Source: Deltaproteobacteria bacterium | GTDB lineage: Bacteria; Desulfobacterota; DSM-4660; Desulfatiglandales; HGW-15 | Direction of reading: 5' to 3' | DNA length: 47,797 nucleotides | Assembly: GCA_016932115.1 (NCBI GenBank) | Contig: JAFGDM010000081.1 | Span: forward strand, 1 to 47,797 | Shown here: positions 1-41,758 of the stretch, piece after piece | How positions within the stretch are numbered: position 1 is the first letter of the stretch | How the letters are laid out: each line of letters starts with the position of its first letter | The notes under the pieces: model-generated | Told to the model about the DNA's origin: nothing | Database searches by the model: none | What the model saw: only the letters and a program-made list of their open reading frames with translations | Made by a program: the position numbers and the translations under genes

Positions 1-38
1 CTCCGCCCGCCTCACCCGTTGCCCGAAGCATAACACGG

Positions 39-126
39 CGATGTGGCTTCTTCGTTTTTGAGTTTTAAGAGGGACCCCCATGCTCGGGGCCGCCGACTTC
101 GGCATTTCAAACAGCTAAATTGTTAC
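39..126 (+). repeat. Copy A of an 88-nt intergenic repeat (partner at 23247-23334)
   Basis: Ungapped hand alignment with 23247-23334 gives about 79/88 identical bases in the same orientation. Contains an imperfect hairpin, ATGCTCGGGGCCGCCGACTTCGGCAT, at 80-105. Confidence 0.7.
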
Positions 127-324
127 AAAAACCCTATGTGTTCCAGTCATCCTGTTTATCACCACGGAAGCATCGGATACGAGGAACCCGGTTGCCCAAT
201 TGTATATCACCGGTCACAGACACTCGGAATTTCTAAACCCATTTCAAATAATAAACAATAATTTTTCCCTTTCAACCTCTCAATTGCCTTATTACGCTCT
301 TAAAAACCGGCTGCCCACTTAGCC

Positions 325-353
325 TTGACACAGAAGAAATCTTTCTCTATAGT
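325..353 (+). promoter_or_regulatory. sigma70-type promoter upstream of the dsrE-like gene
   Basis: TTGACA (325-330), 17-nt spacer, TATAGT (348-353). Lies about 130 nt upstream of ATG 484. Confidence 0.5.
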
Positions 354-483
354 CCCACCCTAACCGAAGGAAATGCCCAACCACTCGGCATTTTGAAATC
401 GCCATGGCGGAGGACTCCCTAGAGGTTCTACAGAAGCTTTACTCCTTAGGAAGAAATGATTTTGCCGGGGGCAACCAAATTTA

Positions 484-861
484 ATGGGAAAATACCTGAT
501 AATCGTTAACAATGGCCCTGAAGATCCAAACAGAGCAACGGTACCTTTTCTTACCGCCAGGGCATTGGTAGAAAAAGGGCACGAGGTGGCTATTTGGCTT
601 TTTAACAACTCGGTCTATCTAGCATTCGAGGGCGTTGCAGAAAATGTTCAGGCTCCGGGCCTGCCTAATCTTGAGGACTTGATGCTTTTCCTTAGCATAA
701 CCAAGAAAATCCCCATTTTCATTGGAACGGCGTGCGCTATGGGACGGGGGCTGGTGAATGAAAATCACGAAGCCTCTGTCACTTTTTTTTGCGGTGAGCT
801 TGGTATGCCTTCCCAATTAGCCGATCTCATTGTAGAGGCTGACAATGTAATCGGCTTTTAG
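484..861 (+). CDS. DsrE/DsrF-like sulfur-relay family protein
   Basis: 125-aa ORF. The MGKYLIIVNNGPEDPNRATVPFLTARALVEKGHEV... start and the conserved-Cys segment IGTACAMGRG are typical of the DsrE fold. Called from motif memory. Confidence 0.65.
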   Translation: MGKYLIIVNNGPEDPNRATVPFLTARALVEKGHEVAIWLFNNSVYLAFEGVAENVQAPGLPNLEDLMLFLSITKKIPIFIGTACAMGRGLVNENHEASVTFFCGELGMPSQLADLIVEADNVIGF

Positions 862-1008
862 CTCTTTTCGGAAAAATAGTGTTTTGTCATTCTCAGCAGA
901 ATTTTGCCGGTTGACTTTGCCTTAAAAACAAGTTATGAGATCGCATATTATTGTTATAATAACTTTTTATCCACTGTTTCCGTCAGCTACAAGGAGTTGA
1001 AGGAGGAA

Positions 1009-2307
1009 ATGCCTATGGCAGATGAAGCGTTGGAGTTGAGCGAACTTAAAGGAGAATTCAGGAAGAAAGTCAATGAGCTTTTACCTGAGGGAAATCTGAA
1101 TCTCTGCTTCACCTGTGGTACCTGTGCCAGCGGTTGTCCGGCTACCGGACTCGAGAACATGGACCCAAGAAAATTTGTCAGGATGATAGCGCTGGGTCTT
1201 GATGATGAGGTAACGAGCACACCCTGGGTGTGGATGTGCAGCATGTGTCAGCGTTGTATCTATGCCTGCCCCATGAATGTTGATATCCCCCGGATGGTAT
1301 ACCTTGCTCGCCAGGCATGGCCGCGTGAGGAAAGGCCTAAAGGGATCCTCGGTTCATGCGATATGGCTCTCAGGAACGACAGTTGCAGCGCCATGGGAGC
1401 GTCGCCTGAGGATTTTCAGTTTGTTGTAGAAGACGTGGCGGAGGAAGTTAGAGAAAACCATCCCGGATTCGAGACGCTCCAGGCCCCGATAGACAAAGAG
1501 GGCGCTTATTTTTTTCTCAACCAGAATTCAAGAGAGCCGGTGACGGAGCCGGATGAAATGATCCCTCTGTGGAAGATTCTCCACCTTGCCGGAGCAGACT
1601 GGACCTATGGCTCCAAGGGGTGGGGCGGAGAAAACTACTGTATGTTTCTGGCTGATAGTGATGCCTGGGAACACATCGTTCGTACGAGCATAAAGCAGGC
1701 CGAAGATCTAGGGTGTAAGGTTTATCTCAATACCGAGTGAGGCCACGTGACCTTCGCAGTCCTGGAAGGACTGAAAAAATTTGGAATCAAGACCGACCTG
1801 GAAATTGCAAGCATTTATCAATACTATGCCAAATGGATCAGGGAGGGAAAATTAAAGGTTAATTCGGACTGGAACAAAGATCTAAAGATAAAATTCACGG
1901 TTCAGGATCCGTGTCAGATCGTCCGAAAAAGCTATGGTGACCCTGTAGCGGAAGATTTACGCTATGTTGTCAGATCCGTTGTCGGGGATGAAAATTTTAT
2001 TGATATGACACCTAACAGGTCCAACAATTATTGTTGTGGTGGTGGCGGTGGATATCTGCAATCCGGTTATGTTGAAGCACGTCATCAGTATGGGAAGGTC
2101 AAATTTGACCAGATCGTTGCTACAGGGGCCGATTATTGCGTTGCCGCATGCCATAACTGTCACGCCCAGATTCATGATCTGGCGGAGCATTTTGAAGGTA
2201 AATACCATACTGTCCACCTGTGGACTTTGATTTGCCTCGCCATGGGAGTTCTAGGTGAAAACGAGCGTACATATTTGGGTCCCGATCTGGCGGAGGTGGG
2301 GCTCTGA
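1009..2307 (+). CDS. HdrD/GlpC-like Fe-S oxidoreductase (ferredoxin domain plus two cysteine-rich CCG-type domains), read through in-frame UGA 1738-1740 as selenocysteine
   Basis: Track ORFs 904-1740 and 1747-2307 share one frame and are separated only by TGA-GGC-CAC. The N part has CFTCGTCASGCP and CSMCQRCIYACP. The C part has DPC...NNYCCGGGGGY. The likely start is ATG 1009 or 1015, after AGGAGG at 1001-1006. A hairpin begins 16 nt after the UGA. Confidence 0.75.
1757..1773 (+). promoter_or_regulatory. Putative bacterial SECIS hairpin for UGA 1738
   Basis: CAGTCC-TGGAA-GGACTG: 6-bp stem and 5-nt loop, starting 16 nt after the UGA. Confidence 0.55.
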
Positions 2308-2337
2308 GTTTGATACCGATAGGCTTTTCATAGTTAA

Positions 2338-2366
2338 ATCCCGCCCTGTTCAGGCGGGATTTTTTT
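2338..2366 (+). terminator. Rho-independent terminator, possibly bidirectional, between the convergent operons
   Basis: ATCCCGCC-CTGTTCA-GGCGGGAT followed by TTTTTT, with an A-run on the 5' side. Confidence 0.7.
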
Positions 2367-2471
2367 CGGCTACAGGTTCCCTGAGAAATAAAGGGTAAGA
2401 GCCATGTGAAAGCGACCCCCCGGGCCTGATGCCGGCGGTTTTTTCAAAAAGCTGAAACGTTACCCCGCTTT

Positions 2472-3314
2472 TTAATACTCCGGCGGCATCCGCTTGAGCT
2501 GAGCCAAGGAAAAAACCGGCCCATCTTTGCACACATACTGATCTCCAATGTTGCACCGTCCGCAAATGCCGATTCCGCACTTCATGCGCATTTCCAGGGA
2601 TAGAATGATTTTCTCCGCGGGGAACCCCAGTTTTTCCAGCACGGGCTGGGTAAACTTGATCATGATCGGCGGCCCGCACACAATGGCAAAGGCGTCATCC
2701 GCGCTCTTGATTTTTTGCTCTGTAACCGTGGGGACGAACCCTACGTTGTATTTCCAGTTTGGATCATCGGTGGCGTCCACGGTGATGTGCATGTTGATGT
2801 CGTCGCGCTGTTCCCATGCTGCGAGTTCATCCTTGTATAAAAGCATGCCGGGGTTCCGGGCTCCATACACAACGGTTATATCCTTGAATCGCGGCCGGTT
2901 GTCCGGGTGGATCATATAGACAATGCTGGAGCGCAGGGTGGTGAAGGCAAAACCGCCCCCTATAATCACCACGTTTTTCCCTTCCATCTCCTCCCAGGGA
3001 TACCAATTTCCCAAGGGGCCGCGAATGCCCATCACCTCTCCCTCTTTCATGTTGTGGAGATAATTAGTTACCTGACCGACCTTATTCACCGTGAAGGTGA
3101 CAACCCCCCCCTCCGTAGGGGAAGAAGCAATACCGATGGGGATCTCGCCTTTTCCGGCAATGGAAAGCTCCGCAAACTGGCCCGGAATATAGGAAAACTT
3201 TTTTTCATCTTCCGGATCCAGAAAAACGAACCTGAAGGTTTTCAAATTTCGGTCTTCAGTCTCCGTGGTAATCTGATCGATACGAACAGGATAAGGCAAA
3301 TAAGGGTTGTGCAT
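2472..3314 (-). CDS. FAD/NAD(P)H-binding oxidoreductase with C-terminal [2Fe-2S] (FlxA / sulfhydrogenase gamma / AsrB / PyrK-like)
   Basis: 280 aa. The start resembles a ferredoxin-reductase-type barrel. There is a GGGFAF nucleotide-binding stretch and a C-terminal MKCGIGICGRCNIG...CKDGP cysteine cluster. Confidence 0.75.
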   Translation of the reverse strand: MHNPYLPYPVRIDQITTETEDRNLKTFRFVFLDPEDEKKFSYIPGQFAELSIAGKGEIPIGIASSPTEGGVVTFTVNKVGQVTNYLHNMKEGEVMGIRGPLGNWYPWEEMEGKNVVIIGGGFAFTTLRSSIVYMIHPDNRPRFKDITVVYGARNPGMLLYKDELAAWEQRDDINMHITVDATDDPNWKYNVGFVPTVTEQKIKSADDAFAIVCGPPIMIKFTQPVLEKLGFPAEKIILSLEMRMKCGIGICGRCNIGDQYVCKDGPVFSLAQLKRMPPEY

Positions 3315-3401
3315 GAAGCTAATACTCCTTTTTCAGGTTGGACTCTTGGAGGGAATCTTTTTTAGCCATTGCTTCCTCCAATGCTCCGCTGTTCCTCTTC
3401 T

Positions 3402-4439
3402 TCAATACCCGTTCATCAATCCAAACACTTCTCGAATATCGATATTAACGGGGCAGAACTGAACACATCGGCCGCAACCGACACATGCCACGCCGTTTTC
3501 GTACTTGTCCACGTAATATTTCAGCTTGTGCATGAAACGTTGTCTGACCCTTTGGAGTTTTTTGTCTCGGGGATTGTGACCTGATCCGTGAAGGGTGAAA
3601 ATCGGAAACATGCATGCGTCCCAGTTGCGTATCCTGTCTCCTTCTTTGCCGCAGGTTTCATCCTGGATGTCGAAACACCAACAGGTCGGGCAGAGGTAGG
3701 TGCAGGTTCCACAGTTGATGCAGGCAAAGGAGATCCTTTCCCAGAAGTGGGCGCTGAATAACTCATTCACGACCTTGTCTTTAAGACGATCGGTGGGTAC
3801 AGTGGAGGAAATTTTTTTCTCCGAGCCTTTGGCCAGCTCCTGCGCCTGCTTGAGGACGGTGCCGTCCGCTTTCTTTCCGCTTTTGAGCGCTCCCAGAAGA
3901 GCTTCGCCTTTGGTCGTGAGGCTCTTTACCAGAAAACGATCGCCCAGATCCACCATGAGCGCATCCAGCCCTTTCTCGCAGAATGGGCCGCTTCCAACGG
4001 ATGTGCAAAAGCAGGACGCGCAAGGCTCGTTGCAGCCAAAGCCGACAATTGTGGTCGCATTCATTCGCTGAATCCACCAGGGATCACGGTATTGGGGGTT
4101 GTCGAAATTGATGCGAACCAACTGGAAGGCAAGGGCGTCGCAGGGCCGGATTCCCACAATGGCCTGCGTTGAGAAATCTTTGGGTGTTTCCTTGATGATG
4201 TGGGCGTCTTCTTTGCTATCATCCAAAGAGTATTCGAACATCCGCTCCGATTGAGGGAAAATTATGCTTTTCGCAGAGAGCCTTGTGTTCTGGAAGTCGA
4301 AACTCGGTTTGGCGCCGTTTTTCAGCGGCCTGAAATTGTGGAAGTCCCCTTCTTTTACGGGTACAAAAACCTTATAAGCGCTTTGCAGCTCTTTAAGTGC
4401 CTCGGTCCATTCTTCCTTGGTAAATGATTTCTCAAGCAT
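3402..4439 (-). CDS. 4Fe-4S dicluster protein, FlxB / sulfhydrogenase beta / AsrA-like
   Basis: 345 aa with CINCGTCTYLCPTCWCFD and CVGCGRCVQFCPVNIDI motifs. Confidence 0.7.
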   Translation of the reverse strand: MLEKSFTKEEWTEALKELQSAYKVFVPVKEGDFHNFRPLKNGAKPSFDFQNTRLSAKSIIFPQSERMFEYSLDDSKEDAHIIKETPKDFSTQAIVGIRPCDALAFQLVRINFDNPQYRDPWWIQRMNATTIVGFGCNEPCASCFCTSVGSGPFCEKGLDALMVDLGDRFLVKSLTTKGEALLGALKSGKKADGTVLKQAQELAKGSEKKISSTVPTDRLKDKVVNELFSAHFWERISFACINCGTCTYLCPTCWCFDIQDETCGKEGDRIRNWDACMFPIFTLHGSGHNPRDKKLQRVRQRFMHKLKYYVDKYENGVACVGCGRCVQFCPVNIDIREVFGLMNGY

Positions 4440-4551
4440 AGTGCTTATCCTAATGACTTTTTGAGGACGCTAAAAACGACACACGGTACAGCCTGCTCAA
4501 CGGAAGTAGTCTCTGTTTCTAAGACCGAGCGGCATAAGACAGAGCACCGTG

Positions 4552-5502
4552 TCATTTTACAAACTCATTGTAATCGTCCACCCGGTAAACATCGAGGGGC
4601 GGCCGCTGATCGGCACGAACGCCCGCTTCCCACCCGAAGTACTCGAAGACATCCTTGTTGAGTTTCTTGGTGAACTGCCTCATCGGTATACCGACCGGGC
4701 AAACCCTTTCACAGGCACCACAGTCGGTGCATCGTCCCGCGCAGTGGTATGCTCGCAGGAAGTGGAAGGTCATGGTATCCACAGGATCAATGCTTTTTCC
4801 TACCCATTGGGGACGGGATTCATCCACAAAACAGGTGGGGCAGTAACAAAGGGGACAGGCGTTCCTGCATGCATAGCAGCGGATGCAGGATGCAATGAGC
4901 TGAGTGAAAAATTGACGTTTTTCATCAGCACTCTTTTTTTCAATACCCTCCACGTCCTTGAAGGGGTTGACCCCTTCCAATTCCGGCACCGGATCGGCGA
5001 CCATCTCGTCGTATTCCACCGGGTTGCGATGGACGCATACGGCGCAATTGGTTCTCAGGAAATCCTTTTTTTGGAAAACTTCCTGGAAACCCTTTCCGCT
5101 CACTGTGAATGATTCGCCTTCTTCTCCCACTTCCAGAATTTCCCGATTTCCCACGGCCCTTTTCACGGCCCGATGATCAATGATACCCCTGCAGGGTATC
5201 CCGACGATATAGAGCTGTTCTCGCTTGATCTGGTTTTCAATGATATGGGTCACGATGTTGCGGGAGTTGCAGCCGTTCGCCACGAGGCCGATACGGTCGG
5301 TGCGCCCGGTCAGGTAGTTACAAAGATTCAGCCCGCAATGGCTGTCCCAATGCAGAAAGTCCACTTCGGCTGGATCCTTAATCAGCACAGGCTCATTCAT
5401 CATGGCCACAGTGCCTTTCCTGTACCCGATAAAAACATCCACCGTGCCTTTTTCCAAAAGCTTTCGAGCGATCTCTCTGATTTTCCGGGTATATTCAAAC
5501 AT
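4552..5502 (-). CDS. Fe-S protein, FlxC-like (paralog of the 41759-42886 product)
   Basis: 316 aa with CIRCYACRNACPLCYCPTCF and CTDCGACERVCPVGIPM. Its start ATG overlaps the mvhD stop (TAATG at 5500-5504). Confidence 0.6.
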   Translation of the reverse strand: MFEYTRKIREIARKLLEKGTVDVFIGYRKGTVAMMNEPVLIKDPAEVDFLHWDSHCGLNLCNYLTGRTDRIGLVANGCNSRNIVTHIIENQIKREQLYIVGIPCRGIIDHRAVKRAVGNREILEVGEEGESFTVSGKGFQEVFQKKDFLRTNCAVCVHRNPVEYDEMVADPVPELEGVNPFKDVEGIEKKSADEKRQFFTQLIASCIRCYACRNACPLCYCPTCFVDESRPQWVGKSIDPVDTMTFHFLRAYHCAGRCTDCGACERVCPVGIPMRQFTKKLNKDVFEYFGWEAGVRADQRPPLDVYRVDDYNEFVK

Positions 5503-5939
5503 TACGCCACCTCAGCTCTTTTCTTGACAAGATAGGCCGCAGGCCCGGCGTCTTTGACCGAATGGAAGATTTCTGTCGCCACCTCCACGAATTTGGTAGC
5601 TTCAGCGGAGGAAATCCAGGAAAAATGAAGCCTTCCCGGCTCCAGTCCGATATGTTCCAGAAGGTTTTTGAGGAGAGCGAACTTGCGTCTTGCGTAATAA
5701 TTACCTTCCAGGTAATGGCAGTCTCCGGGGTGTCACCCGGAAACCCACACCCCGTCGGCACCGTGCCGGAAAGCGGCCAGGATGAGTTTGGGGCTTACCC
5801 GGGCGGAGCAGGGCACGCGAATGACACGGATATTGGAAGGGTACTGCAAACGGCTGACTCCGGCCAGGTCCGCCGCTCCGTAACTGCACCAGTTGCAAAG
5901 GAATGCGGTAATTTTCGGCTGCCAATCGTTCATGGGCAT
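5502..5939 (-). CDS. mvhD: MvhD/FlxD-type [2Fe-2S] protein, selenocysteine form (UGA at 5735-5733)
   Basis: Track ORF 5733-5939 ends ...[12 protein letters not shown]. Hand translation continues in frame as [44 protein letters not shown]... to TAA at 5504-5502. The Cys paralog at 41309 reads [28 protein letters not shown], which places the UGA exactly on a conserved Cys. Confidence 0.85.
5700..5716 (-). promoter_or_regulatory. Putative bacterial SECIS hairpin for UGA 5735-5733
   Basis: Minus strand ATTACC-TGGAA-GGTAAT: 6-bp stem and 5-nt loop, starting 16 nt after the UGA. Confidence 0.55.
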
Positions 5940-6029
5940 TCACTCCGTTTTATCGATTTCCGGTTTTCTATCTTGGAACCTCTCTTTTCCTATGAGCTTC
6001 CGCCACGAGCCTTAGGCCTTGAGGCGTTT

Positions 6030-9000
6030 TCACATTTCATTGATCATCGCCATGATCTGTCCTTCCTCAAAGCCTTTGAGGTTGAGAGCCCCGGAGCGGC
6101 AAGAAGAGACGCAAAGTCCGCAGCCCTTGCAAAGGACGGGGTTGATTTCCGCCTTTCCCGCAAAAGGGCCTTTTGGAATAAAAGACGGAGCGGAGTAAGG
6201 GCAGATCTCCACGCACACGCCGCAGCTACTGCAGACCGCCGGATTGGCGTAAGCAACCATGCCGCTTACGGAGATGTTCTTTCTGGCCAAAAGGGTGACG
6301 GCCCTGGAAGCGGCGGCTTGGGCCTGCGCCACCGACTCGTCGATGGGTTTCGGGTAGTGAGCCATTCCGCAAAGAAAAACGCCGTCCGTGGCAAACTGTG
6401 AGGGGCCTAGCTTCGCATGGGCTTCCACAAAGAATCCGTCCTCGCTCATGGGCACTTTGAAGAATTGGGCCAGTTTTTCGTCCTTGTAGGGAACGATGGC
6501 CGAAGCCAGGGTGAGCAGATCCGCCATGACTATGACAGGGCGCTGCAGCACATGATCCATCACCTCAATCTCGATGCCTTCCTTGCCGACTGTAACCCTC
6601 GGCTTTTGAGCACGGGAGAAGCGGATGAAAATGACGCCCGCTTCTCGCGCAGCTCTGTATAGGAGTTCGCGCTCCCCATAGGTGCGGATGTCCCGATTGA
6701 GAATGTACACGTCCATACCCGGGTTGATTTCCTTGAGATGGAGGGCGCTACCTATGGAGTGGGTGCAGCAGACCCTCGAACAGTAAGGCCTTTCCGGCTC
6801 CCGGGATCCCACGCACTGGATGAATACGGCACACTTGATGCGTTTAAGGGATGAATCTTGATCGATAAACTTGCGGTCCAGTTCCTGGTGCGTGAGGATC
6901 CGGGGATCTTTGCCGTAGAGATATTCCTCGGGTTTGTGTTCGTAGCATCCGGTAGCCAGCACCGCAATTCCGTGTTCGAGGGTCCCCTTTGTACCGCCGG
7001 CTTTAAAGGTGGATTTGAAGTTGCCCACAAAGCCCTCAACCTGCGTTAGCTCGGCGCCAAGATGGGTCTCGATATTTTTGTCACCCTGCACCGATGTAAC
7101 AAGGGTTTTCAGGTTTTCCTGGATATCTTCTCCCTGCCAGGTCTTATACAGGTTGATCGCTTGGCCTCCGAGAACCGGTTCGCGTTCGATAAGATCCACC
7201 TGGTAGCCCTGGTCGCTCAAGGTTTTTGCCGCGGCCATGCCGGATATGCCGCCGCCGATGACCAGGGCTCGCTGGTTGACGTCCAAGGCCGCTTCGGGAA
7301 GGCCTTCCATGAGGGCGACCTTGGCCGTTGCCATGCGCACCAGGTCTTTGGCCTTGACGGTTGCTTTCGAGGGACTTTCCTTATGGACCCACGAATCCTG
7401 GTTGCGGATGTTGGTCATTTCAAATAGATATTTGTTCAGCCCGGCGGCGACAAGGGTTTCCTGGAAAAGAGGCTCATGGGTCTTGGGCGTGCAGGCGGCC
7501 ACCACGATCCGGTTGAGGTTGTTGGCCTTGATCACTTGAGTCATGGCGTCCTGGGTATCCTGGGAGCAGGAGTAAAGGTTGTCCGCCACGTATTCTACAT
7601 AGGGCAAAGTCTTGGCATAGTCACGCACAGCCGGAACATCCACCACACTGCCTATGTTGATTCCACAATGGCACACAAAAACCCCGATCCGGGGTCTTTC
7701 TCCACGGGTGTCCTTTTGTTCGATCACTTCTTTCGTTTTGGTGAGCGTGTTTCTTGCGCTGCTCAGAAGGGCACCGGCCCGGGCGGCCGCAGAGCTCGCT
7801 TCGATAACCGACTGAGGAATGTCCTTGGGACCCTGAAAAGCGCCGCACACGTATATGCCTTCCTTGGATGTGGCCACAGGCGCAAAAGAGCCGGTGCGGC
7901 AAAAATGGGATTCCGTAAGGTCGATGCCGAGCTTTCCTGCCAGCTCCATAACCTCGGGGGAGCTTTCCAACCCGACGGAAAGGACGACCATGTCAAAGGT
8001 TTCTTTGTGAAGCGCACCGTCTTCCGTCGCATACCGGACGCTCAAATCCTCGGTTCCCGGAACCCCCTCGACTGTGTGCACACGGCACCGGATGAACCGA
8101 ACTCCGTGTTTTTCCCTGGCTGCGTCATAGTACCTTTCAAACTCCTTTCCGTGGGTCCGCATGTCCATGTAGAAGATGGCGCACTCCAGATCGGCTCCGG
8201 AATGCTCCTTGGCGATCACCGCTTCTTTGATGGCGTACATGCAGCACACGGAAGAACAGTAAGGGTGATCGGAGGGATGGATCTCCCTGGATCCCACGCA
8301 CTGGAGCCAGGCGATCTTCTTGGGCTCCTTGTGGTCCGACATCCGCGCCAGGTGTCCCATGGTCGGACCGGAAGCCGAAAGAATCCTTTCGAACTCCATG
8401 GATGTTACGACATTTGGAAGCCGGGCATAGTTGTATGTGTCATGCTTCGAGGGGTCGAAAGGCTGGAACCCGGGGGCCAGGATGATAGCGCCTACCTCAA
8501 GTTCGATGATCTCGTCCTTCTGTGTGTAATCGATGGCGCCCACCCCGCAAAACTCCGCGCAGATTTTGCACCCTCCTGTCTTGAAATGCATGCATTTGCT
8601 CCGGTCGATGGCCGGGATATTCGGGATAGCCTGCGCATAAGGGACGTAAATGGGCTTTCGGCCCTTCAGTCCCATATCGTACTCGGAAGGAATTTTCTTT
8701 ACAGCGTGCTTGCTGATGTCTTCCAGTTTGATGTGGCCTGTGGGGCAAACGGAAGCGCAGGCCCCGCAGCCCATACAGTATTCCGTCTGGATATGAAAAG
8801 GGGTGTCCACCTTCATTTCCGTGCCGCGGCCCGTCAGGCTTATGGCCGCATTGCCCATTTTCTCGCAGATCCGAGTGCACAGCCCGCAAAGAATGCAGTC
8901 GTCCTGTTCTTTCTTGAACCTTGGCTCTACGATCCCGTACTTTTTTGCAAGGTTTTTGAGAAGAGGGACATCAGGGCAACGGGCGAAGAGCAGTTCAACA

Positions 9001-9263
9001 ATCAGCTTGCGGCCTTTGCGGACGGCCTCAGAGTCGGTTTTGACCTCCATTCCTTCCCAAATGGGGTAGTTGCAGGCTGTCACAAAACGGGTCCGCCGCC
9101 CGTCAAAAAGCTCGACGGTGCAAAGGCGGCACATCCCGGCAGGCTCCAGGGCCTTGTGATAGCAAAGGGTCGGGATGTCGATCCCGTATTTCTGCGCAAC
9201 CTGCAGGATGTATTGGCCTTCTTCTCCCTGGACGGTCTTCCCATTCATCTTGAACGTAATCAT
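6030..9263 (-). CDS. Fusion protein: NuoG/HndD-type N-terminus ([2Fe-2S] plus 4Fe-4S motifs), then the C-terminal part of one HdrA FAD module, an HdrA N-terminal-type Cys domain, a second complete HdrA FAD module and a 2x[4Fe-4S] ferredoxin domain
   Basis: The real start is most likely MITFKMNGKTVQ at 9263. The track start at 9521 overlaps the nuoF-like gene. Motifs present: CYH...CRLC, CILCGLCTRIC, CMGCGACASVCP, KKIPSEYDMGLKGRKPIY, CVGSREIHPSDHPYCSSVCC, RIGVFVCHCGINIG...VVAACTPKTHE, VIGGGISGMAAA, CVGSREPERPYCSRVCC, CSSCGVCVEICP and CKGCGLCVSSC. Confidence 0.8.
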   Translation of the reverse strand: MITFKMNGKTVQGEEGQYILQVAQKYGIDIPTLCYHKALEPAGMCRLCTVELFDGRRTRFVTACNYPIWEGMEVKTDSEAVRKGRKLIVELLFARCPDVPLLKNLAKKYGIVEPRFKKEQDDCILCGLCTRICEKMGNAAISLTGRGTEMKVDTPFHIQTEYCMGCGACASVCPTGHIKLEDISKHAVKKIPSEYDMGLKGRKPIYVPYAQAIPNIPAIDRSKCMHFKTGGCKICAEFCGVGAIDYTQKDEIIELEVGAIILAPGFQPFDPSKHDTYNYARLPNVVTSMEFERILSASGPTMGHLARMSDHKEPKKIAWLQCVGSREIHPSDHPYCSSVCCMYAIKEAVIAKEHSGADLECAIFYMDMRTHGKEFERYYDAAREKHGVRFIRCRVHTVEGVPGTEDLSVRYATEDGALHKETFDMVVLSVGLESSPEVMELAGKLGIDLTESHFCRTGSFAPVATSKEGIYVCGAFQGPKDIPQSVIEASSAAARAGALLSSARNTLTKTKEVIEQKDTRGERPRIGVFVCHCGINIGSVVDVPAVRDYAKTLPYVEYVADNLYSCSQDTQDAMTQVIKANNLNRIVVAACTPKTHEPLFQETLVAAGLNKYLFEMTNIRNQDSWVHKESPSKATVKAKDLVRMATAKVALMEGLPEAALDVNQRALVIGGGISGMAAAKTLSDQGYQVDLIEREPVLGGQAINLYKTWQGEDIQENLKTLVTSVQGDKNIETHLGAELTQVEGFVGNFKSTFKAGGTKGTLEHGIAVLATGCYEHKPEEYLYGKDPRILTHQELDRKFIDQDSSLKRIKCAVFIQCVGSREPERPYCSRVCCTHSIGSALHLKEINPGMDVYILNRDIRTYGERELLYRAAREAGVIFIRFSRAQKPRVTVGKEGIEIEVMDHVLQRPVIVMADLLTLASAIVPYKDEKLAQFFKVPMSEDGFFVEAHAKLGPSQFATDGVFLCGMAHYPKPIDESVAQAQAAASRAVTLLARKNISVSGMVAYANPAVCSSCGVCVEICPYSAPSFIPKGPFAGKAEINPVLCKGCGLCVSSCRSGALNLKGFEEGQIMAMINEM

Positions 9264-9285
9264 GGGGCAAATCCTTTTCTCTTCC

Positions 9286-11187
9286 CTACTTAACCACAAT
9301 GGCGTCAAACTTACAGGTGTCGTAGCAAATCCCGCACTTGATGCATTTTTCCTGGTCCAGTGTGTGAAGTTTTTTCTTCTCGCCGGTGATGGCTTGCTGT
9401 GGGCACTTGAGGGCGCACACGTGACACCCGGTGCAAGCTTTTTCATCCACCTCGTAATGAAACAGGGGTTTGCAAACGCCTGCAGGGCATTTCTTATCGT
9501 AAATGTGGGCCTCGTACTCATCTCGGAAGTAGAGAATCGTGGTAAGCACCGGATTTGGCGCTGAGGTGCCCAGCCCGCACAGGGAGAACTTCTGAATCAT
9601 GCTTCCCATTTCTTCAAGAAGCTCAATGTCTCCTTCCTTCCCCCGGCCTTCGCAAATGTCCGTGAGCACATCGAGCATCTGCTTGATTCCCTCTCTGCAG
9701 GGGGTGCACTGGCCGCACGATTCTCCTTTGAGAAAATCCAGAAAGTAGCGGGCCAAATCCACCATGCAGGTGCCCTGATCCATCACGATCATGCCGCCGG
9801 ATCCCATCATGGAACCCACCTTGGTGAGCTCATCGTAACCCACCTGGAGATCCAGGAAGGCCTCAGGGATGCACCCTCCCGAAGGGCCTCCTGTCTGGAC
9901 GGCCTTGAATTTACGTTTCTTGGGAATTCCTCCTCCCATCTCAAAGATGATCTCGCGCAAGGTGGTTCCCATCGGTACTTCGACCAAGCCTGTATTCTTC
10001 ACCTTGCCCACCAGGCTGAAAACCTTTGTTCCTTTGCTGTACTTCGTTCCCATGCTGCTGAACCAGTCGGCTCCCTTGAGCATGATGACGGGGACATTGG
10101 CATAGGTTTCCACATTGTTGAGGTTGGAGGGGCCGTCCCTGAAGCCCTTTTCCACGGTGTGGACATACTTGGCTCTGGGCCTTCCGACATTTCCCTCGAG
10201 GGAGGCCATGAGGGCCGTAGACTCGCCGCAAACAAAGGCGCCTGCGCCGGTCGAAATCTTGACGTGGAAACCGAAATCCGACCCGGCGATGTTGTCCCCG
10301 AGAAGTCCAAAATCCTCCGCTTGCTTCAGGGCCGACACAAGGCGTTTAACGGCCAGAGGATATTCGTTGCGCACGTAAATGAAACCCTGAGAGGACCCAA
10401 TCGCATAAGCCGCGATAAGCATTCCCTCCAAAACACTGTGAGGGTCGCCCTCCAGAACACTCCTGTCCATGTAGGCGCCGGGATCTCCCTCATCGGCGTT
10501 GCAGATGACATAGCGCTCTCCCGGGTGTTTGCGACAGCTCTCCCATTTGATGCCGGTGGGGAAACCTCCCCCGCCCCTTCCCCTCAGACCGGACTTCTTA
10601 ATGGTCGCAATGATCTCCTCATGTTTCATCTCAGCGAGGATGCGGACAAAAGCGAAATACCCGCCTCGCCCGATATACTCTTCTATGCTGTCAGGATCGA
10701 TGTAACCACAATTGCGCAAAGCGATTTTGATCTGATGAGCGTAAAAAGGGATTTCATCCAGGAAAGGGATTCCCTTGATGGGATTTACCTTTTCAAGCGG
10801 GTTAGGCCGATCCTCTTCAATGACGGATCTGGGGTCGCGCATCTGACCGAGAATCAATTTTTTGCTGAATGTTTCTTCCATGTAATCCTGGAATACATCC
10901 GGTAGTTTGTCCTCTGTCACACGTTTGTAGACGACCCTCGGTTTACCCTTGGCCAAAATCTCCACCAGGGGTTCTTCTTCACAAAAACCGATGCAGCCGG
11001 TCTGGCGGATTTCAATGGAATCACCGGCGGGATGCTCCTTCAGCGCCCTTTCAAGCGTTGCCCTGGCCCCTGCAGCGATCCCGCAAGAGGCCATGCCCAC
11101 GTTGACCTTGACGCCCTGCGGAAAGGAGAGCTTCTCGTTGAATTCTTCGCTGATCTTCTCCAGATCCTTTACAGATAAAATTCTCAT
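9286..11187 (-). CDS. NuoF/HndC/HydB-like NADH-binding FMN flavoprotein with an N-terminal thioredoxin-like domain and a C-terminal 2x[4Fe-4S]
   Basis: 633 aa with GRGGGGFPTG, ESCGQCTPCREG, CTGCHVCALKCP and CIKCGICYDTC. Confidence 0.85.
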   Translation of the reverse strand: MRILSVKDLEKISEEFNEKLSFPQGVKVNVGMASCGIAAGARATLERALKEHPAGDSIEIRQTGCIGFCEEEPLVEILAKGKPRVVYKRVTEDKLPDVFQDYMEETFSKKLILGQMRDPRSVIEEDRPNPLEKVNPIKGIPFLDEIPFYAHQIKIALRNCGYIDPDSIEEYIGRGGYFAFVRILAEMKHEEIIATIKKSGLRGRGGGGFPTGIKWESCRKHPGERYVICNADEGDPGAYMDRSVLEGDPHSVLEGMLIAAYAIGSSQGFIYVRNEYPLAVKRLVSALKQAEDFGLLGDNIAGSDFGFHVKISTGAGAFVCGESTALMASLEGNVGRPRAKYVHTVEKGFRDGPSNLNNVETYANVPVIMLKGADWFSSMGTKYSKGTKVFSLVGKVKNTGLVEVPMGTTLREIIFEMGGGIPKKRKFKAVQTGGPSGGCIPEAFLDLQVGYDELTKVGSMMGSGGMIVMDQGTCMVDLARYFLDFLKGESCGQCTPCREGIKQMLDVLTDICEGRGKEGDIELLEEMGSMIQKFSLCGLGTSAPNPVLTTILYFRDEYEAHIYDKKCPAGVCKPLFHYEVDEKACTGCHVCALKCPQQAITGEKKKLHTLDQEKCIKCGICYDTCKFDAIVVK

Positions 11188-11208
11188 TTTTCTGCCTCTT
11201 CCGGGCTT

Positions 11209-11706
11209 CTATTCGTAACGCTCCAAGGTTTTCGCCACTTGATCCGGGGACAGGCGGGCATGAACATCCTCATTGATCTTGACCACGGGCCCAAGACTGC
11301 AGCAGCCGATGCAGCGCACGGATTCAAGCGTAAAGGAACCGTCCTCAGTGGTTTGGCCGTTCGAGATGTGCAGGAGCTGCTCAATCTGTTCTTGGACTCG
11401 TTTGGCGCCCCTCACGTGGCAGGCCGTTCCGAGACAAACGGTAATGAGGTTTCGGCCTCTCGGTTCCAAGCTGAAGGTGGCGTAAAATGTGGCGATTCCA
11501 TAGATCCGGCTTAAGGGAACGCCGGTTTTTTCAGCGAGGTAGGCGAGGGCGGGTCTCGGAATGTAGTTATACCGGCCCTGAATCCCCTGAAGCATCATGA
11601 TTAGGTTTTCCTTGTCGCTGCCGTATGTTTCCTCGATGATTTTATCCATCTCGACATAATCCAGTTCCTCGGGAGAAGGGGCAATCGCAACGGGTTCCTT
11701 GTTCAT
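11209..11706 (-). CDS. NuoE/HndA-like thioredoxin-fold [2Fe-2S] protein
   Basis: 165 aa with CLGTACHVRGA ... CIGCCSLGPVV. Confidence 0.85.
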   Translation of the reverse strand: MNKEPVAIAPSPEELDYVEMDKIIEETYGSDKENLIMMLQGIQGRYNYIPRPALAYLAEKTGVPLSRIYGIATFYATFSLEPRGRNLITVCLGTACHVRGAKRVQEQIEQLLHISNGQTTEDGSFTLESVRCIGCCSLGPVVKINEDVHARLSPDQVAKTLERYE

Positions 11707-11719
11707 AAAGACATCCTCT

Positions 11720-12136
11720 TCACTGAGCCTCGCCGGATGATCCTGTGCGTTCTACCGCACCGGCCTCATACAAGACGGGACAGTTCTCAATGCAAACACC
11801 GCATCCGGTACAAAGATCCATATTGATGCTCCGGGCCCTTTTTCTTATCTTCACTTTAAAATGTCCAGGGCTTCCTTCGACAGACTCAAGATCCGAATAG
11901 GTAATGAGTTCAATATTGAGATGCCGGCCGACCTCGACCAGTTTAGGGGAAATGATTCACATCGCACAGTCATTGGTGGGAAAAGTTTTATCCAATTGGG
12001 CCATAACCCCGCCAATGGCCGGGGATTTTTCCAGGAGATACACGTAATATCCGGAATCCGCCAGATCAAGGGCGGATTGCATCCCTGCGATGCCTCCACC
12101 CACAACAAGGACTGAACCTTTTATAGTGTTTGACAT
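11720..12136 (-). CDS. hdrA: HdrA N-terminal fragment (FAD-binding GGGIAG, DCAM-U motif, first CxxCxxCxxxCP), with selenocysteine at UGA 11959-11957. Not present in the ORF track.
   Basis: Hand translation from ATG 12136 (RBS GGAGAAATAAGG) gives [126 protein letters not shown]...Q, ending at TGA 11722-11720. It aligns by eye to both HdrA paralogs in this window. Confidence 0.75.
11924..11941 (-). promoter_or_regulatory. Putative bacterial SECIS hairpin for UGA 11959-11957
   Basis: Minus strand CTGGTCG-AGGT-CGGCCGG: 7-bp stem (two G-U pairs) and an AGGU loop, starting 15 nt after the UGA. Confidence 0.5.
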
Positions 12137-12455
12137 CCTTATTTCTCCTTTGTGTTCATCTTAACAGGTATCGCTTAGAGCTTTCTTATGGCAAGGCACT
12201 TGAAGTTGTCATCCGGATTGAGCCTTCTCGTGCATGATTCTCAGGCCCGAAGAAATTGGATCAGCTGATGCGTCGACAAATCGACATCCGTGATCGAGTA
12301 AGGGTCGGGCTTTACAAGGAAGGGGTTTGGGGATCTGTCCTTCCCTACGGAACCTGTATATCAATGGAATACAGTCGAGGGTAAAGATAGCCGTGGGAAG
12401 GCGAGTCTGTCAATGGTTTTTTGCTCATTCTGTGTGGGAAAGAATCAGGAAAGGG

Positions 12456-12489
12456 CTCTCCCAACCTCCGGATGCGGAAGCCGGGAGAG
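12456..12489 (-). terminator. GC-rich stem-loop just downstream of the dual-REC gene (possible weak terminator or attenuator)
   Basis: Minus strand CTCTCCCGG-CTTCCG-CATC-CGGAGG-TT-GGGAGAG, 10 nt after stop 12499-12501. Followed by CCCTTTCC rather than a clean U-tract. Confidence 0.3.
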
Positions 12490-12498
12490 GATGGGAAT

Positions 12499-13821
12499 CT
12501 ATGCAGCCAAACGAACCGCGTTTTCTGTTACCTTACGGATCTCATCAGGCGTGAAGGGCTTGGGGAGGTAATCGACTGCCCCCAACCTGGCGCTCTCTTT
12601 GGCTGTTTCGATGCTGGCATAGCCGGTGATGATGACAACGGGCGTCTGCGGGCTCTTTTTTCTAATAGTTTGGAGAAGTTCCAGCCCCTGCACGCCGGGT
12701 ATCCTGAGGTCGAGTAGCACCAGTCTGTAAGCTTTCTCCTGGATGCTCCGCAGCGCTTCTTCTTTGGTCATCGCCTGATCTACGGTGAAACCTTTTTTTG
12801 TCAGGATCTTGCGAATATTGTTGTTGACGGCCGCTTCGTCGTCGATAACCAGAATGTCTTGCCCGGTCACTTCGTCCCTTGTAAAGGGAATATCCACATC
12901 AATGATTCGCCTCCTTTCGGCTGCCATTGCGGGTGGAAGCACTCTACGAGGGGCCCTGAGAGGAAAAACGACATCCATGACTTGCCTTCTTTTAGCCAGC
13001 GCCATTTTTTCCTTGAGTTCCTCATAAGGCACAAAGACAACCCCGTCGCCTTGGAGGTGCATGAGGTATTCAGGGCCTGTGATTGAAGCGACCTCCTCAT
13101 AGCTGAAAGGCTGATCAATGCCGACAAGCTTCTTGGGGTCGAATGTTTTTTCGCCCCTGCTTTCTTCCTTGGCCCTCGCGGCATGTTTGGCTTGCGGGCA
13201 TTCGTTCGCCTTAAGGCCCGCCTTGCAGGTGGCGCCGAGTTTCTTGAAAATTTCGCAAACCTTATGCCCTACGGCGCAATAGTACTCGAGAGTTTCCGGC
13301 GAAGGCATCTCCACAACGGGCATGTCCGAGGGGCCCAGCGTATCTGCGTAGGCCTCGCCCGCGAATTCGGCTACCTCCTGCCGATCGAAAGGGATGTCGA
13401 GATCGATGACATCGATCGTCTTTTTCACCTTTTCGGATACCGGCATCTCTTGCAGCTCTCCGGACAAAACCTTGTCCACTGTCTCCCGTACTTCTTTGGG
13501 CGTGAAAGGCTTGGGAATATAATCCAGAGCGCCCAGCCGGATGGCTTTCATGGCCGTATCGGTAGAGGCATAAGCGGTCATGATGATTACCTTGGTCAGA
13601 GGCCACTGTTCTTTGACAAGCTTCAAGAGCTCGAGGCCGTTTTTACCGGGCATCAAAATGTCGGATATGAGCAGGGAATAGGACTCGTTCGCCATCAGTT
13701 CAAGGGCGTCTCTGGCGCTGAAGGCCTGAGTCACTTCATAATTTTCCTTGGTGAGTATCTTACGCACATTGTCACAAATTCCCTTTTCATCGTCGACTAC
13801 CAGAATCTTTTTTGTTTCCAT
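12499..13821 (-). CDS. Dual response-regulator receiver protein (REC, about 200-aa Cys-containing linker, REC) with no recognisable output domain
   Basis: 440 aa. REC1 is KKILVVDDE...DILMPGKNG...KPF. REC2 is ILVIDDE...LDLRIPGVQG...KPF. The linker carries C-X6-C-X9-C-X8-C and three D-x-PF-x3-EV repeats. AGGAGG RBS precedes ATG 13821. Confidence 0.8.
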   Translation of the reverse strand: METKKILVVDDEKGICDNVRKILTKENYEVTQAFSARDALELMANESYSLLISDILMPGKNGLELLKLVKEQWPLTKVIIMTAYASTDTAMKAIRLGALDYIPKPFTPKEVRETVDKVLSGELQEMPVSEKVKKTIDVIDLDIPFDRQEVAEFAGEAYADTLGPSDMPVVEMPSPETLEYYCAVGHKVCEIFKKLGATCKAGLKANECPQAKHAARAKEESRGEKTFDPKKLVGIDQPFSYEEVASITGPEYLMHLQGDGVVFVPYEELKEKMALAKRRQVMDVVFPLRAPRRVLPPAMAAERRRIIDVDIPFTRDEVTGQDILVIDDEAAVNNNIRKILTKKGFTVDQAMTKEEALRSIQEKAYRLVLLDLRIPGVQGLELLQTIRKKSPQTPVVIITGYASIETAKESARLGAVDYLPKPFTPDEIRKVTENAVRLAA

Positions 13822-13878
13822 TATGTCCTCCTATTGGCGGTCGGAGCCGAGAAGATTAACGAAGTTAAATGCCATTGA

Positions 13879-13894
13879 AGCACATTGTGTGCCA
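13879..13894 (-). promoter_or_regulatory. sigma54-type (-24/-12) promoter upstream of the dual-REC gene
   Basis: Minus strand TGGCACACAATGTGCT, against consensus TGGCAC-N5-TTGC. GG and GC are at the correct spacing. Lies about 58 nt upstream of ATG 13821. Confidence 0.55.
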
Positions 13895-14250
13895 ACGGCG
13901 CTTTTTTCGGGTTAACATACTATTTATATTGAATTTATGAGTGATATCCTGTGTCAATCCTTATTGAATGTATATAAATCTTATACAGAAAAAAGTATGA
14001 CGAATAGGCGATGGAAGCCAGTGAAAAGGATAGGCAACTAAAAGCTCCTCTATCCTGAGAAGAAGGGCGTATTTGTAAGATAACTATTTGATAAAATTTA
14101 GTAAGTAAGGGATTTCCCATAAGCTGACAGCTCGGCCTTTCAGACGACAAGAGAAAACATACCTACGCATTGAAACGACTGGAGAACACAATTGGGGAAT
14201 AATCAGAATGGTGTATTAATTAATTATACATGGTATAATTTCTCTAAATT

Positions 14251-15690
14251 TCAAAGATTGTTATCAGGTTTTTTGTGGGGTGGAGAGGAACGGGTTAACA
14301 GGGAGATCCCATGCTTTTTCATGAGATTTTGAAAGTTGGGCCTTTGGAGCCCCACTTTTTTTGCTGCCCGTGTAACGTTCCAGTCGTTTTGCATCAGGGC
14401 CTGGATGATGAAATTTTTTTCCACCTCTCGCACGGCTTTTTCCCGGATCTCTTTTTTGGCCCGTTTCAGATCTTCATTGTTTTCAGGGACTTGGATGACT
14501 AATCCTGCCGTGTCTTGAAGGGCAGGCAGTTCCTTGGGGGTGATCTCATCGCCTTCACAAAGAATCACCGCACGCTCGATTGCGTTCTTGAGCTGCCGCA
14601 CATTTCCAGGCCAATCATAGGCCGTCAACCCGGCCGAGGCTTCCATGGAGAAGCCCTTTATCCCCTTCTGTGTGATGTTGCCGAACTGCCTGAGAAAGTA
14701 ATAGGCGATGGGCAGAATGTCGCTTTTCCTCTCCCTGAGGGGCGGCGTAAAGATGGGATATACAAAGATGCGATAATAGAAATCCTGCCTGAAGGAGCCC
14801 TCTTTCACCATTTCCATCAGGTCTCTGTTGGTGGCAAAGATCAGGCGAACATCAATGTGTTGTTTTACTGTTGCACCAAGGGGAAGGTATTCCCGGGTTT
14901 CAAGGAAACGCAGGAGCTTGCCCTGCACCTCCGGGCTGATGTTGCTGATTTCATCCAAAAACACGGTGCCGCCTTGCGCCGCCTTGAAGATTCCTTCCTT
15001 GTTTTTAAAGGCTCCGGTAAACGCGCCTCTCTCATAGCCGAAGAGCTCGCTTTCCAGGAGGTTACCGGACAAAGTCCCACAATCAACGGCGAAAAAAACA
15101 CGTTCCTTCCGTCTGCTGTTGGCATGAATGGCCCGGGCGATCAACTCCTTGCCCGTGCCGCTTTCCCCGCAGATAAGAACCGTTGAATCGGTCGGGGCCA
15201 CCTTCCCGATCATCTGGATGACCGACTGCATTTTCCGGCTTTTACCGATGAGTTGGTGTGTGACGACTCCCGGCATGTCTTGGTGGGCCTTCATCTCACG
15301 ATTCTGCAGGCGGGTTTCCCAGTCCAAAAGAGCGCGACGAACAACGTTTCTCAACTCTTCCGGGGTGAAGGGCTTGGGAAGGTAATCGTAGGCGCCCATC
15401 TTCATGACTTCAACGGCCGACGACACCGTCGCGTACCCGGTGATCACAATGACGATCGTTTCGGGATAGGATTCCTGCACACGCCTGAGAACCTCCATTC
15501 CCCCCATGCTGGTCATCTTTAGATCCGTAATAATGAGATCAAAAGGGCGTGTCTGCATCATCTTGAGCGCATCATAGCCGTTCAATGCGTACTCAGCTTC
15601 GTACCCCTCTTTGGAGAGGATTTTGACGCAGCTCCGGCAGATGCCCAACTCATCATCCACTACAAGCATCCGGGGTTTCTTATCCGGCAT
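14251..15690 (-). CDS. sigma54-dependent NtrC/Fis-family response regulator (REC, AAA+, HTH)
   Basis: Motifs MLVVDDE, GESGTGKE, GAFTGA and a C-terminal Fis-type HTH. The probable start is MPDKKPRML at 15690, which overlaps the kinase stop by 11 nt. Confidence 0.85.
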   Translation of the reverse strand: MPDKKPRMLVVDDELGICRSCVKILSKEGYEAEYALNGYDALKMMQTRPFDLIITDLKMTSMGGMEVLRRVQESYPETIVIVITGYATVSSAVEVMKMGAYDYLPKPFTPEELRNVVRRALLDWETRLQNREMKAHQDMPGVVTHQLIGKSRKMQSVIQMIGKVAPTDSTVLICGESGTGKELIARAIHANSRRKERVFFAVDCGTLSGNLLESELFGYERGAFTGAFKNKEGIFKAAQGGTVFLDEISNISPEVQGKLLRFLETREYLPLGATVKQHIDVRLIFATNRDLMEMVKEGSFRQDFYYRIFVYPIFTPPLRERKSDILPIAYYFLRQFGNITQKGIKGFSMEASAGLTAYDWPGNVRQLKNAIERAVILCEGDEITPKELPALQDTAGLVIQVPENNEDLKRAKKEIREKAVREVEKNFIIQALMQNDWNVTRAAKKVGLQRPNFQNLMKKHGISLLTRSSPPHKKPDNNL

Positions 15691-38180: not shown

Positions 38181-38183
38181 GAC

Positions 38184-41240: not shown

Positions 41241-41308
41241 GAGGGGTTCATAGACTTCAGAGCGCGGAGCAACAGCTCGTCAATGTGTAGTGGAGGAGGA
41301 AGATTTGC

Positions 41309-41734
41309 ATGGAAGACTCGGAGAACTTCAAGATTGTCGCCTTTCTGTGTAACTGGTGCACCTACGCGGCTGCAGACCTGGCCGGTACCGGCCGCCTGAT
41401 CTATCCGCCGAACGTTCGAACCGTGCGGATTATGTGCTCCGGGTCGCTTGATCCCATGTACGTGGTTAAAGCTTTCCTGGAAGGGGCCGACGGAGTGCTC
41501 GTGGGAGGGTGCGCCCTCGGGGATTGCCATTACACGAGCGGAAATTATAAGGCTCGCCGCAAGGTAGCCGTTTTGCGGGAGGTTCTCGATGCGGTGGGCA
41601 TTGAAAAGGATCGATTATGGCTGCGCTGGATCAGCGCCAGTGAAAGCGGTTTGTTTTCCGAGACCATCCAACAAATGACAAAGGCCATCAAAGCCATGGG
41701 ACCGACTCTGGTGCAAGGCCGGATGATCCTTTAA
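41309..41734 (+). CDS. mvhD: MvhD/FlxD-type [2Fe-2S] protein (Cys form)
   Basis: 141 aa with FLCNWCTYAAADLAG and GGCALGDCHY. Confidence 0.85.
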   Translation: MEDSENFKIVAFLCNWCTYAAADLAGTGRLIYPPNVRTVRIMCSGSLDPMYVVKAFLEGADGVLVGGCALGDCHYTSGNYKARRKVAVLREVLDAVGIEKDRLWLRWISASESGLFSETIQQMTKAIKAMGPTLVQGRMIL

Positions 41735-41758
41735 AAAGAACCTGAGAAGGAGAGGTAC

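Follow-up and report, generated by a model that had tools for sequence, protein, structure and literature searches.

Three genes in the left part of contig JAFGDM010000081.1, a 47,797-nt stretch of Deltaproteobacteria DNA (hereafter, the window), are each interrupted by an in-frame UGA, and each of these UGAs is followed by a small RNA hairpin. The genes encode a HdrD/GlpC/HmcF-like Fe-S protein (HdrD-like), MvhD and an N-terminal part of HdrA (hdrA-N), and they lie in a cluster of redox genes that we identified from the list of open reading frames (ORFs) and domain searches. Are these codons genuine stops, or are they selenocysteine (Sec) codons with bacterial selenocysteine insertion sequence (SECIS) elements behind them, as an earlier examination of the letters alone (the sequence-only reading) had proposed? 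We conclude with high confidence that the three UGAs are Sec codons and that the hairpins, which start 19–20 nt downstream, are bacterial SECIS elements. This reading is supported by the alignment of the UGAs with Cys residues, the fit to the bacterial SECIS (bSECIS) consensus, the conservation of the hairpins in association with TGA, and one covarying base pair.

We numbered each element from the U of its UGA (+1) and read the sequence directly. In the HdrD-like gene the putative Sec codon is found at 1738–1740 of the forward strand, within the motif NTE-U-GH. Its hairpin, CAGUCCU-GGA-AGGACUG, spans +20 to +36 (1757–1773), with arms CAGUCC (+20 to +25, 1757–1762) and GGACUG (+31 to +36, 1768–1773), the letters UGGAA between them, and G27/G28 at 1764–1765. 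The mvhD codon (5735–5733, reverse strand) is located in VSG-U-HPGDCHY and precedes the hairpin AUUACCU-GGA-AGGUAAU at +20 to +36 (5716–5700, reverse strand), in which the arms AUUACC (+20 to +25, 5716–5711) and GGUAAU (+31 to +36, 5705–5700) surround the same UGGAA. The hdrA-N codon (11959–11957, reverse strand) lies in DCAM-U-I and forms part of the CxxU motif of HdrA, and the hairpin CUGGUCG-AGGU-CGGCCGG (+19 to +36, 11941–11924, reverse strand) is built from arms CUGGUCG (+19 to +25, 11941–11935) and CGGCCGG (+30 to +36, 11930–11924), with two G-U pairs and the loop AGGU. The positions, arms and loops given by the sequence-only reading are correct to the base, and the GG that it placed at +27/+28 is present in all three apical loops, above stems of 6–7 bp.

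Folding with RNAfold, which had been suggested as a check, returned each hairpin in both the minimum-free-energy and the centroid structures, for 48-nt and for 63-nt stretches starting at the UGA. The program closed an additional U26-A30 pair in the HdrD-like and mvhD hairpins. Thus, the letters UGGAA stand, while the description as a 5-nt loop gives way to a GGA triloop closed by a 26-30 pair that covaries among relatives. Each of the three in-frame TGAs has a long open reading frame before and after it. When we scanned every TGA flanked upstream and downstream by 40 or more open codons, no fourth case emerged within a real gene of the window. The three coding contexts had been described as unrelated. 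They do encode three different proteins, but they are not fully independent, since a 9-nt core, CCUGGAAGG, is common to the hairpins of the mvhD and HdrD-like genes and is translated as L-E-G, in the same frame, in both.

In all three families the UGA aligned with a conserved Cys and the reading frame was conserved on both sides, the pattern used to recognise selenoprotein genes. The mvhD TGA corresponds to the nearly invariant Cys69 (SG-C-HPGDCHY) of 18 full-length homologues (71–85% identity), to a Cys in the second mvhD gene of the window (mvhD2, 41309–41734), and to a Cys in the MvhD chain of the solved MvhAGD-HdrABC complex (5odc_D). The hdrA-N TGA coincides with the second Cys of DCSMC in the solved HdrA chains 8rvv_A and 5odc_A, and this CxxU position is listed for Sec-HdrA (PMC13188914). 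At the HdrD-like site, four orthologues of 64–71% identity have TGC (loci L054, from Desulfatibacillum alkenivorans, L073, L034 and L048).

We compared the sites with those of related genomes. A single genome scan with MvhD produced 80 loci with 10-kb flanks, from metagenome-assembled genomes (MAGs) and isolates of Desulfobacterota and SAR324, and many of the flanks include hdrA and HdrD-like genes. The mvhD site is TGA in 59 loci versus TGC or TGT in 20. The hairpin codons read CAT TAC CTG GA(A/G) GGT AAT in every one of the 59 TGA loci, that is, an identical CATTACCTGGA(A/G)GGTAAT. Third-position entropy in these genes is 0 from +21 to +36 (0.2 at +30), while the flanks from +6 to +18 and from +39 to +60 vary by 0.5–1.9 bits. 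In the Cys-type mvhD genes, the hairpin region shows 1.0–1.7 bits, the Leu encoded by CUG is often Ile, and most sequences are unable to form the hairpin. The hdrA sites follow the same pattern, with TGA in 46–48 loci versus TGY in 12. CTG GTC GAG GTC GGC CGG (CTGGTCGAGGTCGGCCGG) is frozen in nearly all of the TGA sites, with a third-position entropy of 0 from +21 to +33, compared with 0.4–1.8 bits over the same positions in the 12 Cys-type sites. The third positions that flank the frozen stretch are variable here as well (1–2 bits for the mvhD and hdrA families together). A minority of the Sec-type hdrA genes (L058, L070, L076 and L077, the last from Desulfosarcina alkanivorans) have GAGTTC and hence the loop AGUU, which indicates that what is conserved is G27 with either G or U after it.

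For the HdrD-like gene we used a metagenome scan, which yielded 80 orthologues of 73–90% identity, with tblastn alignments that run from residue 1 or 3 to residue 432 and so cross the TGA. All 80 have both the TGA and the hairpin. Among the 64 distinct sequences, +20 to +26 and +30 to +36 are paired in 96.9% of cells, and sliding the partners by 1–3 columns reduces this value to 13–43%. The loop-closing pair 26-30 covaries (n = 64: UA 33, GC 24, GU 3, UG 2, AU 1, unpaired 1), and one sequence has A21-U35 swapped to U21-A35. Pairing in the RNA and G27 persist even though the encoded peptide varies (LEG, LAG, RAG, RSG). The GG loop had been proposed as the shared feature, and this holds for the three hairpins of the window, whereas strict GG is relaxed in relatives, where the hdrA loop AGUU and HdrD-like variants with the loop GGUCC exist. 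G27 is invariant in 59 mvhD, 46 hdrA and 64 HdrD-like sequences, and +28 is G or U.

More distant GlpC-like paralogues place different stems at the same location, GACCA-GGCU-UGGUC and GCGCUUCG-GUA-CGAAGCGC, with G at +27 in both. The hairpins of the paralogues are offset by one position, and RNAalifold across the HdrD-like subfamilies and these paralogues accordingly yielded only a weak consensus (−3.3 kcal/mol). TGAs that recur out of frame in the related loci served as a negative control. None of them is followed by a hairpin in the +26 to +29 register, and although a few precede one at +31 to +41, the majority lack a hairpin altogether.

Three groups of relatives depart from the common arrangement. 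The Cys-type mvhD genes at L034:10199, L055:7137 and L072:10199 (3 of the 20 with TGC or TGT) retain a near-intact hairpin, CATTATCT(G/T)GA(A/G)GGTAAT, at +20 to +36. Recent conversions of Sec to Cys probably left these behind as relic SECIS elements, and relic SECIS-like hairpins in Cys-type genes have been described before (PMC1794560, Fig. 4). A divergent second MvhD-like paralogue with TGA is present at L028:6129, L029:6136, L030:6132, L043:6361 and L079:1334, where the same hairpin core is extended to 8 bp. In the SAR324 MAG locus L071, two Sec-type HdrD-like copies (L071:4366 and L071:14095) flank mvhD, with the loops GGUCC and AGGUU and a U-C mismatch in both stems.

How often would such hairpins arise by chance? 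We annotated 38 genes of the window by hand from the ORF list and took every in-frame codon as a mock +1. Of 14196 in-frame positions, 50 (0.35%, a count that includes the three sites) showed the strict geometry (stem of at least 6 bp, loop of 3–6 nt, GG at +27/+28); when every position of both strands was considered, the rate was 0.21%. The sequence-only reading had named a similar frequency after random in-frame positions as an outcome that would undermine it, and the frequency observed is not comparable: the hairpin is present at 3/3 of the in-frame TGAs, for which the chance expectation is ~4e-8. With a looser consensus (stem of at least 6 bp, loop of 3–9 nt opening with G[G/U], spacing of 16–37 nt), 6.1% of the 1762 TGA trinucleotides in the window qualified, and 0/18 of the terminal TGA stops of window genes did so. 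The 38 genes end in TGA (18), TAA (14) or TAG (6). As TGA is the commonest true stop, a local signal is needed to mark the three internal UGAs. A code in which UGA is a sense codon throughout (genetic codes 4 or 25) was considered and rejected, since 18/38 genes end in TGA. These explicit pattern scans, which covered in-frame codons, TGAs, terminal TGAs and the recurrent in-frame TGAs of the 80 related loci, were used in place of a covariance model, and they returned no further candidate Sec codon in the window. MAFFT misaligns the hdrA-N element against those of mvhD and HdrD-like.

We compared the hairpins to known SECIS elements. The bSECIS consensus (the bSECISearch model of Zhang & Gladyshev, summarised in PMC13188914, Fig. 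2) comprises an apical loop of 3–9 nt on a stem of 4–16 bp, a G at loop position 1 or 2, in most cases within N1-G-[G|U]-N-N2 with N1/N2 pairing, a distance of 16–37 nt from UGA to loop, and a minimum free energy no higher than −7.5 kcal/mol. The hairpins of the window similarly lie in the coding region just downstream of an in-frame UGA, beginning at +19/+20. In the order HdrD-like, mvhD and hdrA-N, they have loops of 3 (or 5), 3 (or 5) and 4 nt and stems of 7 (or 6), 7 (or 6) and 7 bp. Their loops read U-GGA-A, U-GGA-A and AGGU, with U26-A30 or, among HdrD-like relatives, G26-C30 as the covarying N1/N2 pair, and the distance from UGA to loop is uniformly 22 nt (+4 to +25), rising to 23 nt when the 26-30 pair is assigned to the stem. 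With energies taken over 48 nt, the HdrD-like and hdrA-N elements fall within every limit of the consensus and the mvhD element within all except, probably, the energy threshold. Unlike the consensus range, the register seen here is far narrower, with G27 in each hairpin type. The elements also fit the description in a structural study of SelB, in which the SECIS stem has 6–8 bp and its loop carries a conserved G ~20 nt beyond the UGA, the hairpin being located at the mRNA entrance and bound by winged-helix domains 3–4 (PMC4605307). The E. coli fdhF SECIS, which is read by SelB, resembles them in directly following an in-frame UGA that replaces Cys and in having GG/GU in its apical loop (GGUC). 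It differs in that the fdhF loop is at +22 to +25 (GG at +22/+23) on a long, interrupted hairpin of ~40 nt that starts from the UGA, whereas the window loops are 4–5 nt further downstream and only a short minihelix of 6–7 bp is evident.

The protein families are equally familiar. HdrA, FrhD/MvhD and GlpC-like Fe-S oxidoreductase are 3 of the 25 bacterial selenoprotein families tabulated in 2006, and their selenoprotein genes form operon clusters in Deltaproteobacteria such as Syntrophobacter fumaroxidans (Zhang et al. 2006, PMC1794560). In the delta-symbionts of Olavius these are the most abundant selenoprotein families, and the bacterial FrhD has a single Sec (PMC1976440). The window shares with these organisms the three families, the gene clustering, the Sec positions (CxxU in HdrA, a single Sec in FrhD/MvhD) and the presence of Cys paralogues in the same genome. 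It differs in that hdrA is split, with the Sec codon in a separate N-terminal ORF of 138 codons, and in that no gene for a [NiFeSe] hydrogenase large subunit (FrhA/MvhA) adjoins the cluster in the window.

Several observations weigh against the assignment of the hairpins as SECIS elements and of the UGAs as Sec codons. The minimum free energies over 48 nt are −11.9 kcal/mol for HdrD-like, −10.2 kcal/mol for hdrA-N and −5.8 kcal/mol for mvhD. The mvhD hairpin, at about −5 kcal/mol (−5.1 to −5.8), is thus weaker over this span than the published −7.5 kcal/mol; over 63 nt mvhD reaches −8.3 kcal/mol, with unrelated extra helices, and the span behind the published threshold may differ. Dinucleotide-shuffle z-scores are not significant (HdrD-like −1.1, mvhD +0.3, hdrA-N −0.6). 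Adding 30–60 nt of upstream RNA lowers the pair probability of the mvhD hairpin to 0.01–0.09, so that alternative pairings are predicted to displace it, while the HdrD-like and hdrA-N hairpins hold (0.78–1.0 and 0.85–1.0, respectively). The mvhD and hdrA hairpins display conservation without covariation, and Rfam (gathering thresholds; E ≤ 10 over 1–12600) gave no match at any of the three sites. The tRNA scan and the ORF list revealed no Sec machinery gene and no tRNA-Sec within the 47.8-kb window, where the sole tRNA is a tRNA-Leu, and the selenium in the three proteins is itself a prediction from sequence.

The energetic objections are reduced by a control. The experimentally established fdhF SECIS of E. 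coli, the sequence of which we checked at 100% identity in fdhF of at least 5413 E. coli genomes, has z = −1.3, likewise not significant. Thus, the thermodynamic criterion proposed with the sequence-only reading does not discriminate and should not count against the finding. In folds that omit the upstream RNA, as would apply to a ribosome positioned on the UGA, the core pairs of all three hairpins have probabilities of ~0.9 or higher, and the two outermost mvhD pairs 0.73–0.85. The mvhD hairpin is invariant in 59 genomes at ~−5 kcal/mol, and the −7.5 kcal/mol threshold could miss it.

We propose that decoding would proceed as in characterised systems. With the ribosome at the UGA, the upstream mRNA would lie inside the ribosome, which would leave the minihelix of 17–18 nt at the mRNA entrance. 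SelB would use its C-terminal winged-helix domains to bind the apical loop through G27 and the following G or U, the tethered SelB-GTP-Sec-tRNASec would outcompete RF2 at the A site, and Sec would be inserted where homologues have Cys. From established knowledge we infer SelB binding, Sec insertion and the presence of selA, selB, selC and selD in the genome.

Three other explanations deserve consideration. The signal could be real and SelB-dependent and yet deliver Cys, or a mixture of Sec and Cys, through a Cys-charged tRNASec-like tRNA or under selenium limitation, such that these proteins are not obligate selenoproteins. Many functional orthologues and the window's own paralogues have Cys at the site, Sec and Cys forms often interconvert, and relic hairpins persist in the Cys-type mvhD genes of L034, L055 and L072. 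SelB-dependent recoding of UGA to Cys was reportedly found in some bacteria by Mukai et al. in 2016. However, the three families are classic Sec families of Deltaproteobacteria, and it is unparsimonious that a costly recoding signal would be kept in 59, 46 and 80 lineages when TGY would do, so that we regard Cys delivery as very unlikely. A marginally smaller likelihood attaches to the hairpins being by-products of conserved amino acids, or serving another role such as ribosome pausing or mRNA stability, with the UGAs read through or terminated independently. The stems do lie within conserved protein motifs (HYLEGN and KLVEVGRH), and the shuffle z-scores would agree with such an origin. It is countered by the Cys-type orthologues, which encode the same or nearly the same peptides with other codons and mostly lack the hairpin, and by the synonymous sites, which are frozen only in the presence of the TGA codon. 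The HdrD-like peptide, moreover, changes while the pairing and G27 stay, and the register is identical in three different proteins.

The sequence-only reading had considered chance stops and pseudogenisation hard to invoke, and the comparative data bear this out. If the three TGAs were chance stops, whether from pseudogenes, split genes or sequencing errors, the hairpins behind them would be coincidental. Gene callers would indeed truncate all three genes, and hdrA-N is truly a short, split ORF. Nevertheless, dozens of independent genomes and metagenomes have the TGA at the very same codon, their downstream frames are intact and conserved, and the joint probability of the hairpin geometry given above is minute. 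This explanation is refuted by the comparative data, and we assign it a negligible probability. Sec insertion at SECIS-marked UGAs remains by far the best account of the three genes.

The finding is an ordinary and already described feature, in that the families, their operon clustering and the SECIS consensus were published in 2005–2007, and it adds no new mechanism. Its consequences are for annotation, where the three genes should be entered as selenoprotein genes that continue past their UGAs, not as pseudogenes or as six truncated ORFs, and for physiology, where the organism's Hdr/Mvh-type electron-bifurcating complexes would depend on selenium. Modest by-products are the covarying loop-closing pair and a clean natural experiment, in which only the genes with a TGA codon have frozen synonymous sites. 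Slightly beyond the textbook picture are the fixed G27 register, the shared CCUGGAAGG core, the split hdrA, and a very weak mvhD hairpin that is perfectly conserved across 59 related genomes of Desulfobacterota and SAR324.

G is located exactly at +27 in all five hairpin types seen (mvhD, hdrA, HdrD-like and two types of GlpC-like paralogue). On this basis we raise the tentative and rather doubtful suggestion that the SECIS register in Desulfobacterota and SAR324 is essentially fixed and not spread over 16–37 nt. If true, this would point to a lineage-specific mode of SelB that reads both sequence and distance, offset by ~4 nt from that of E. coli, and would provide a sharper selenoprotein predictor for these genomes, one that accepts a minihelix as weak as −5 kcal/mol.

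The genes themselves are arranged as follows. The HdrD-like gene, read through the UGA, occupies 1009–2307 of the forward strand; its start is probably the ATG at 1009, while the mechanical ORF begins at TTG 904. The protein has 4Fe-4S dicluster and CCG domains, with Pfam matches to Fer4_8 and CCG both above cut-offs, and its best NCBIfam matches are HmcF, TmcB and DsrK, all under cut-off (HmcF 181 versus 750). Directly upstream of it is a DsrE-like gene (484–861, forward strand), and this copy has no in-frame TGA. DsrE-like proteins are among the listed selenoprotein families (PMC1794560).

On the reverse strand, the hdrA-N ORF (12136–11720) comprises 138 codons with its UGA read through, and its product corresponds to the N-terminal, FAD-binding part of HdrA. 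The ORF is followed by a NuoE-like gene (11706–11209), a NuoF-like gene (11187–9286) and a gene for a fusion of 1079 aa (9269–6030), in which a NuoG-type N-terminus precedes the rest of HdrA. In this split arrangement, hdrA-N carries the Sec codon and covers positions 137–257 of the NCBIfam HdrA2 model (160.7 bits; the whole-protein cut-off of 1100 is inapplicable to a fragment). The fusion resumes the model at 248–576, behind its 2Fe-2S/4Fe-4S NuoG-type N-terminus. Alignment of hdrA-N with HdrA structures in the PDB covers residues 141–255 of 8rvv_A. The same short ORF is present in L009, L012, L069 and L080 with Sec, and in L048 and L054 (Desulfatibacillum alkenivorans) with Cys, and hence represents a conserved architecture and not a pseudogene. 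A mechanical ORF of 1163 aa (6030–9521) shares 236 nt (9286–9521) with the 3' end of the NuoF-like gene. The Pfam 2Fe-2S match begins at the ATG at 9269 (MITFKMNGK...), which is probably the true start of the fusion. Downstream of the fusion, the mvhD/frhD gene (FlpD family; 5939–5502, reverse strand), read through its UGA, gives a full-length match to Pfam PF02662 (E = 3.7e-53; 179.2 bits against a cut-off of 22.3), and its product has 75–86% identity to Cys-type homologues of full length. Three more Fe-S/flavoprotein genes follow on the same strand (5502–2472).

A second cluster, located at 36219–42886 of the forward strand, consists of hdrA, an hdrA-like gene (1018 aa), mvhD and an FrhB-like gene, with Cys at the matching residues (Cys195 of hdrA2 and Cys68 of mvhD2). 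These two Cys codons have no SECIS-like hairpin downstream and serve as an internal Cys-paralogue control. Finally, a non-coding gap of 360 nt is present upstream of hdrA-N, within the region 12137–17170. Beyond the gap, the reverse strand carries two response-regulator genes, one of them AAA+/sigma-54-activator-like (14251–15774), and a gene for a PAS histidine kinase (15680–17170), which together may regulate the hdr cluster.

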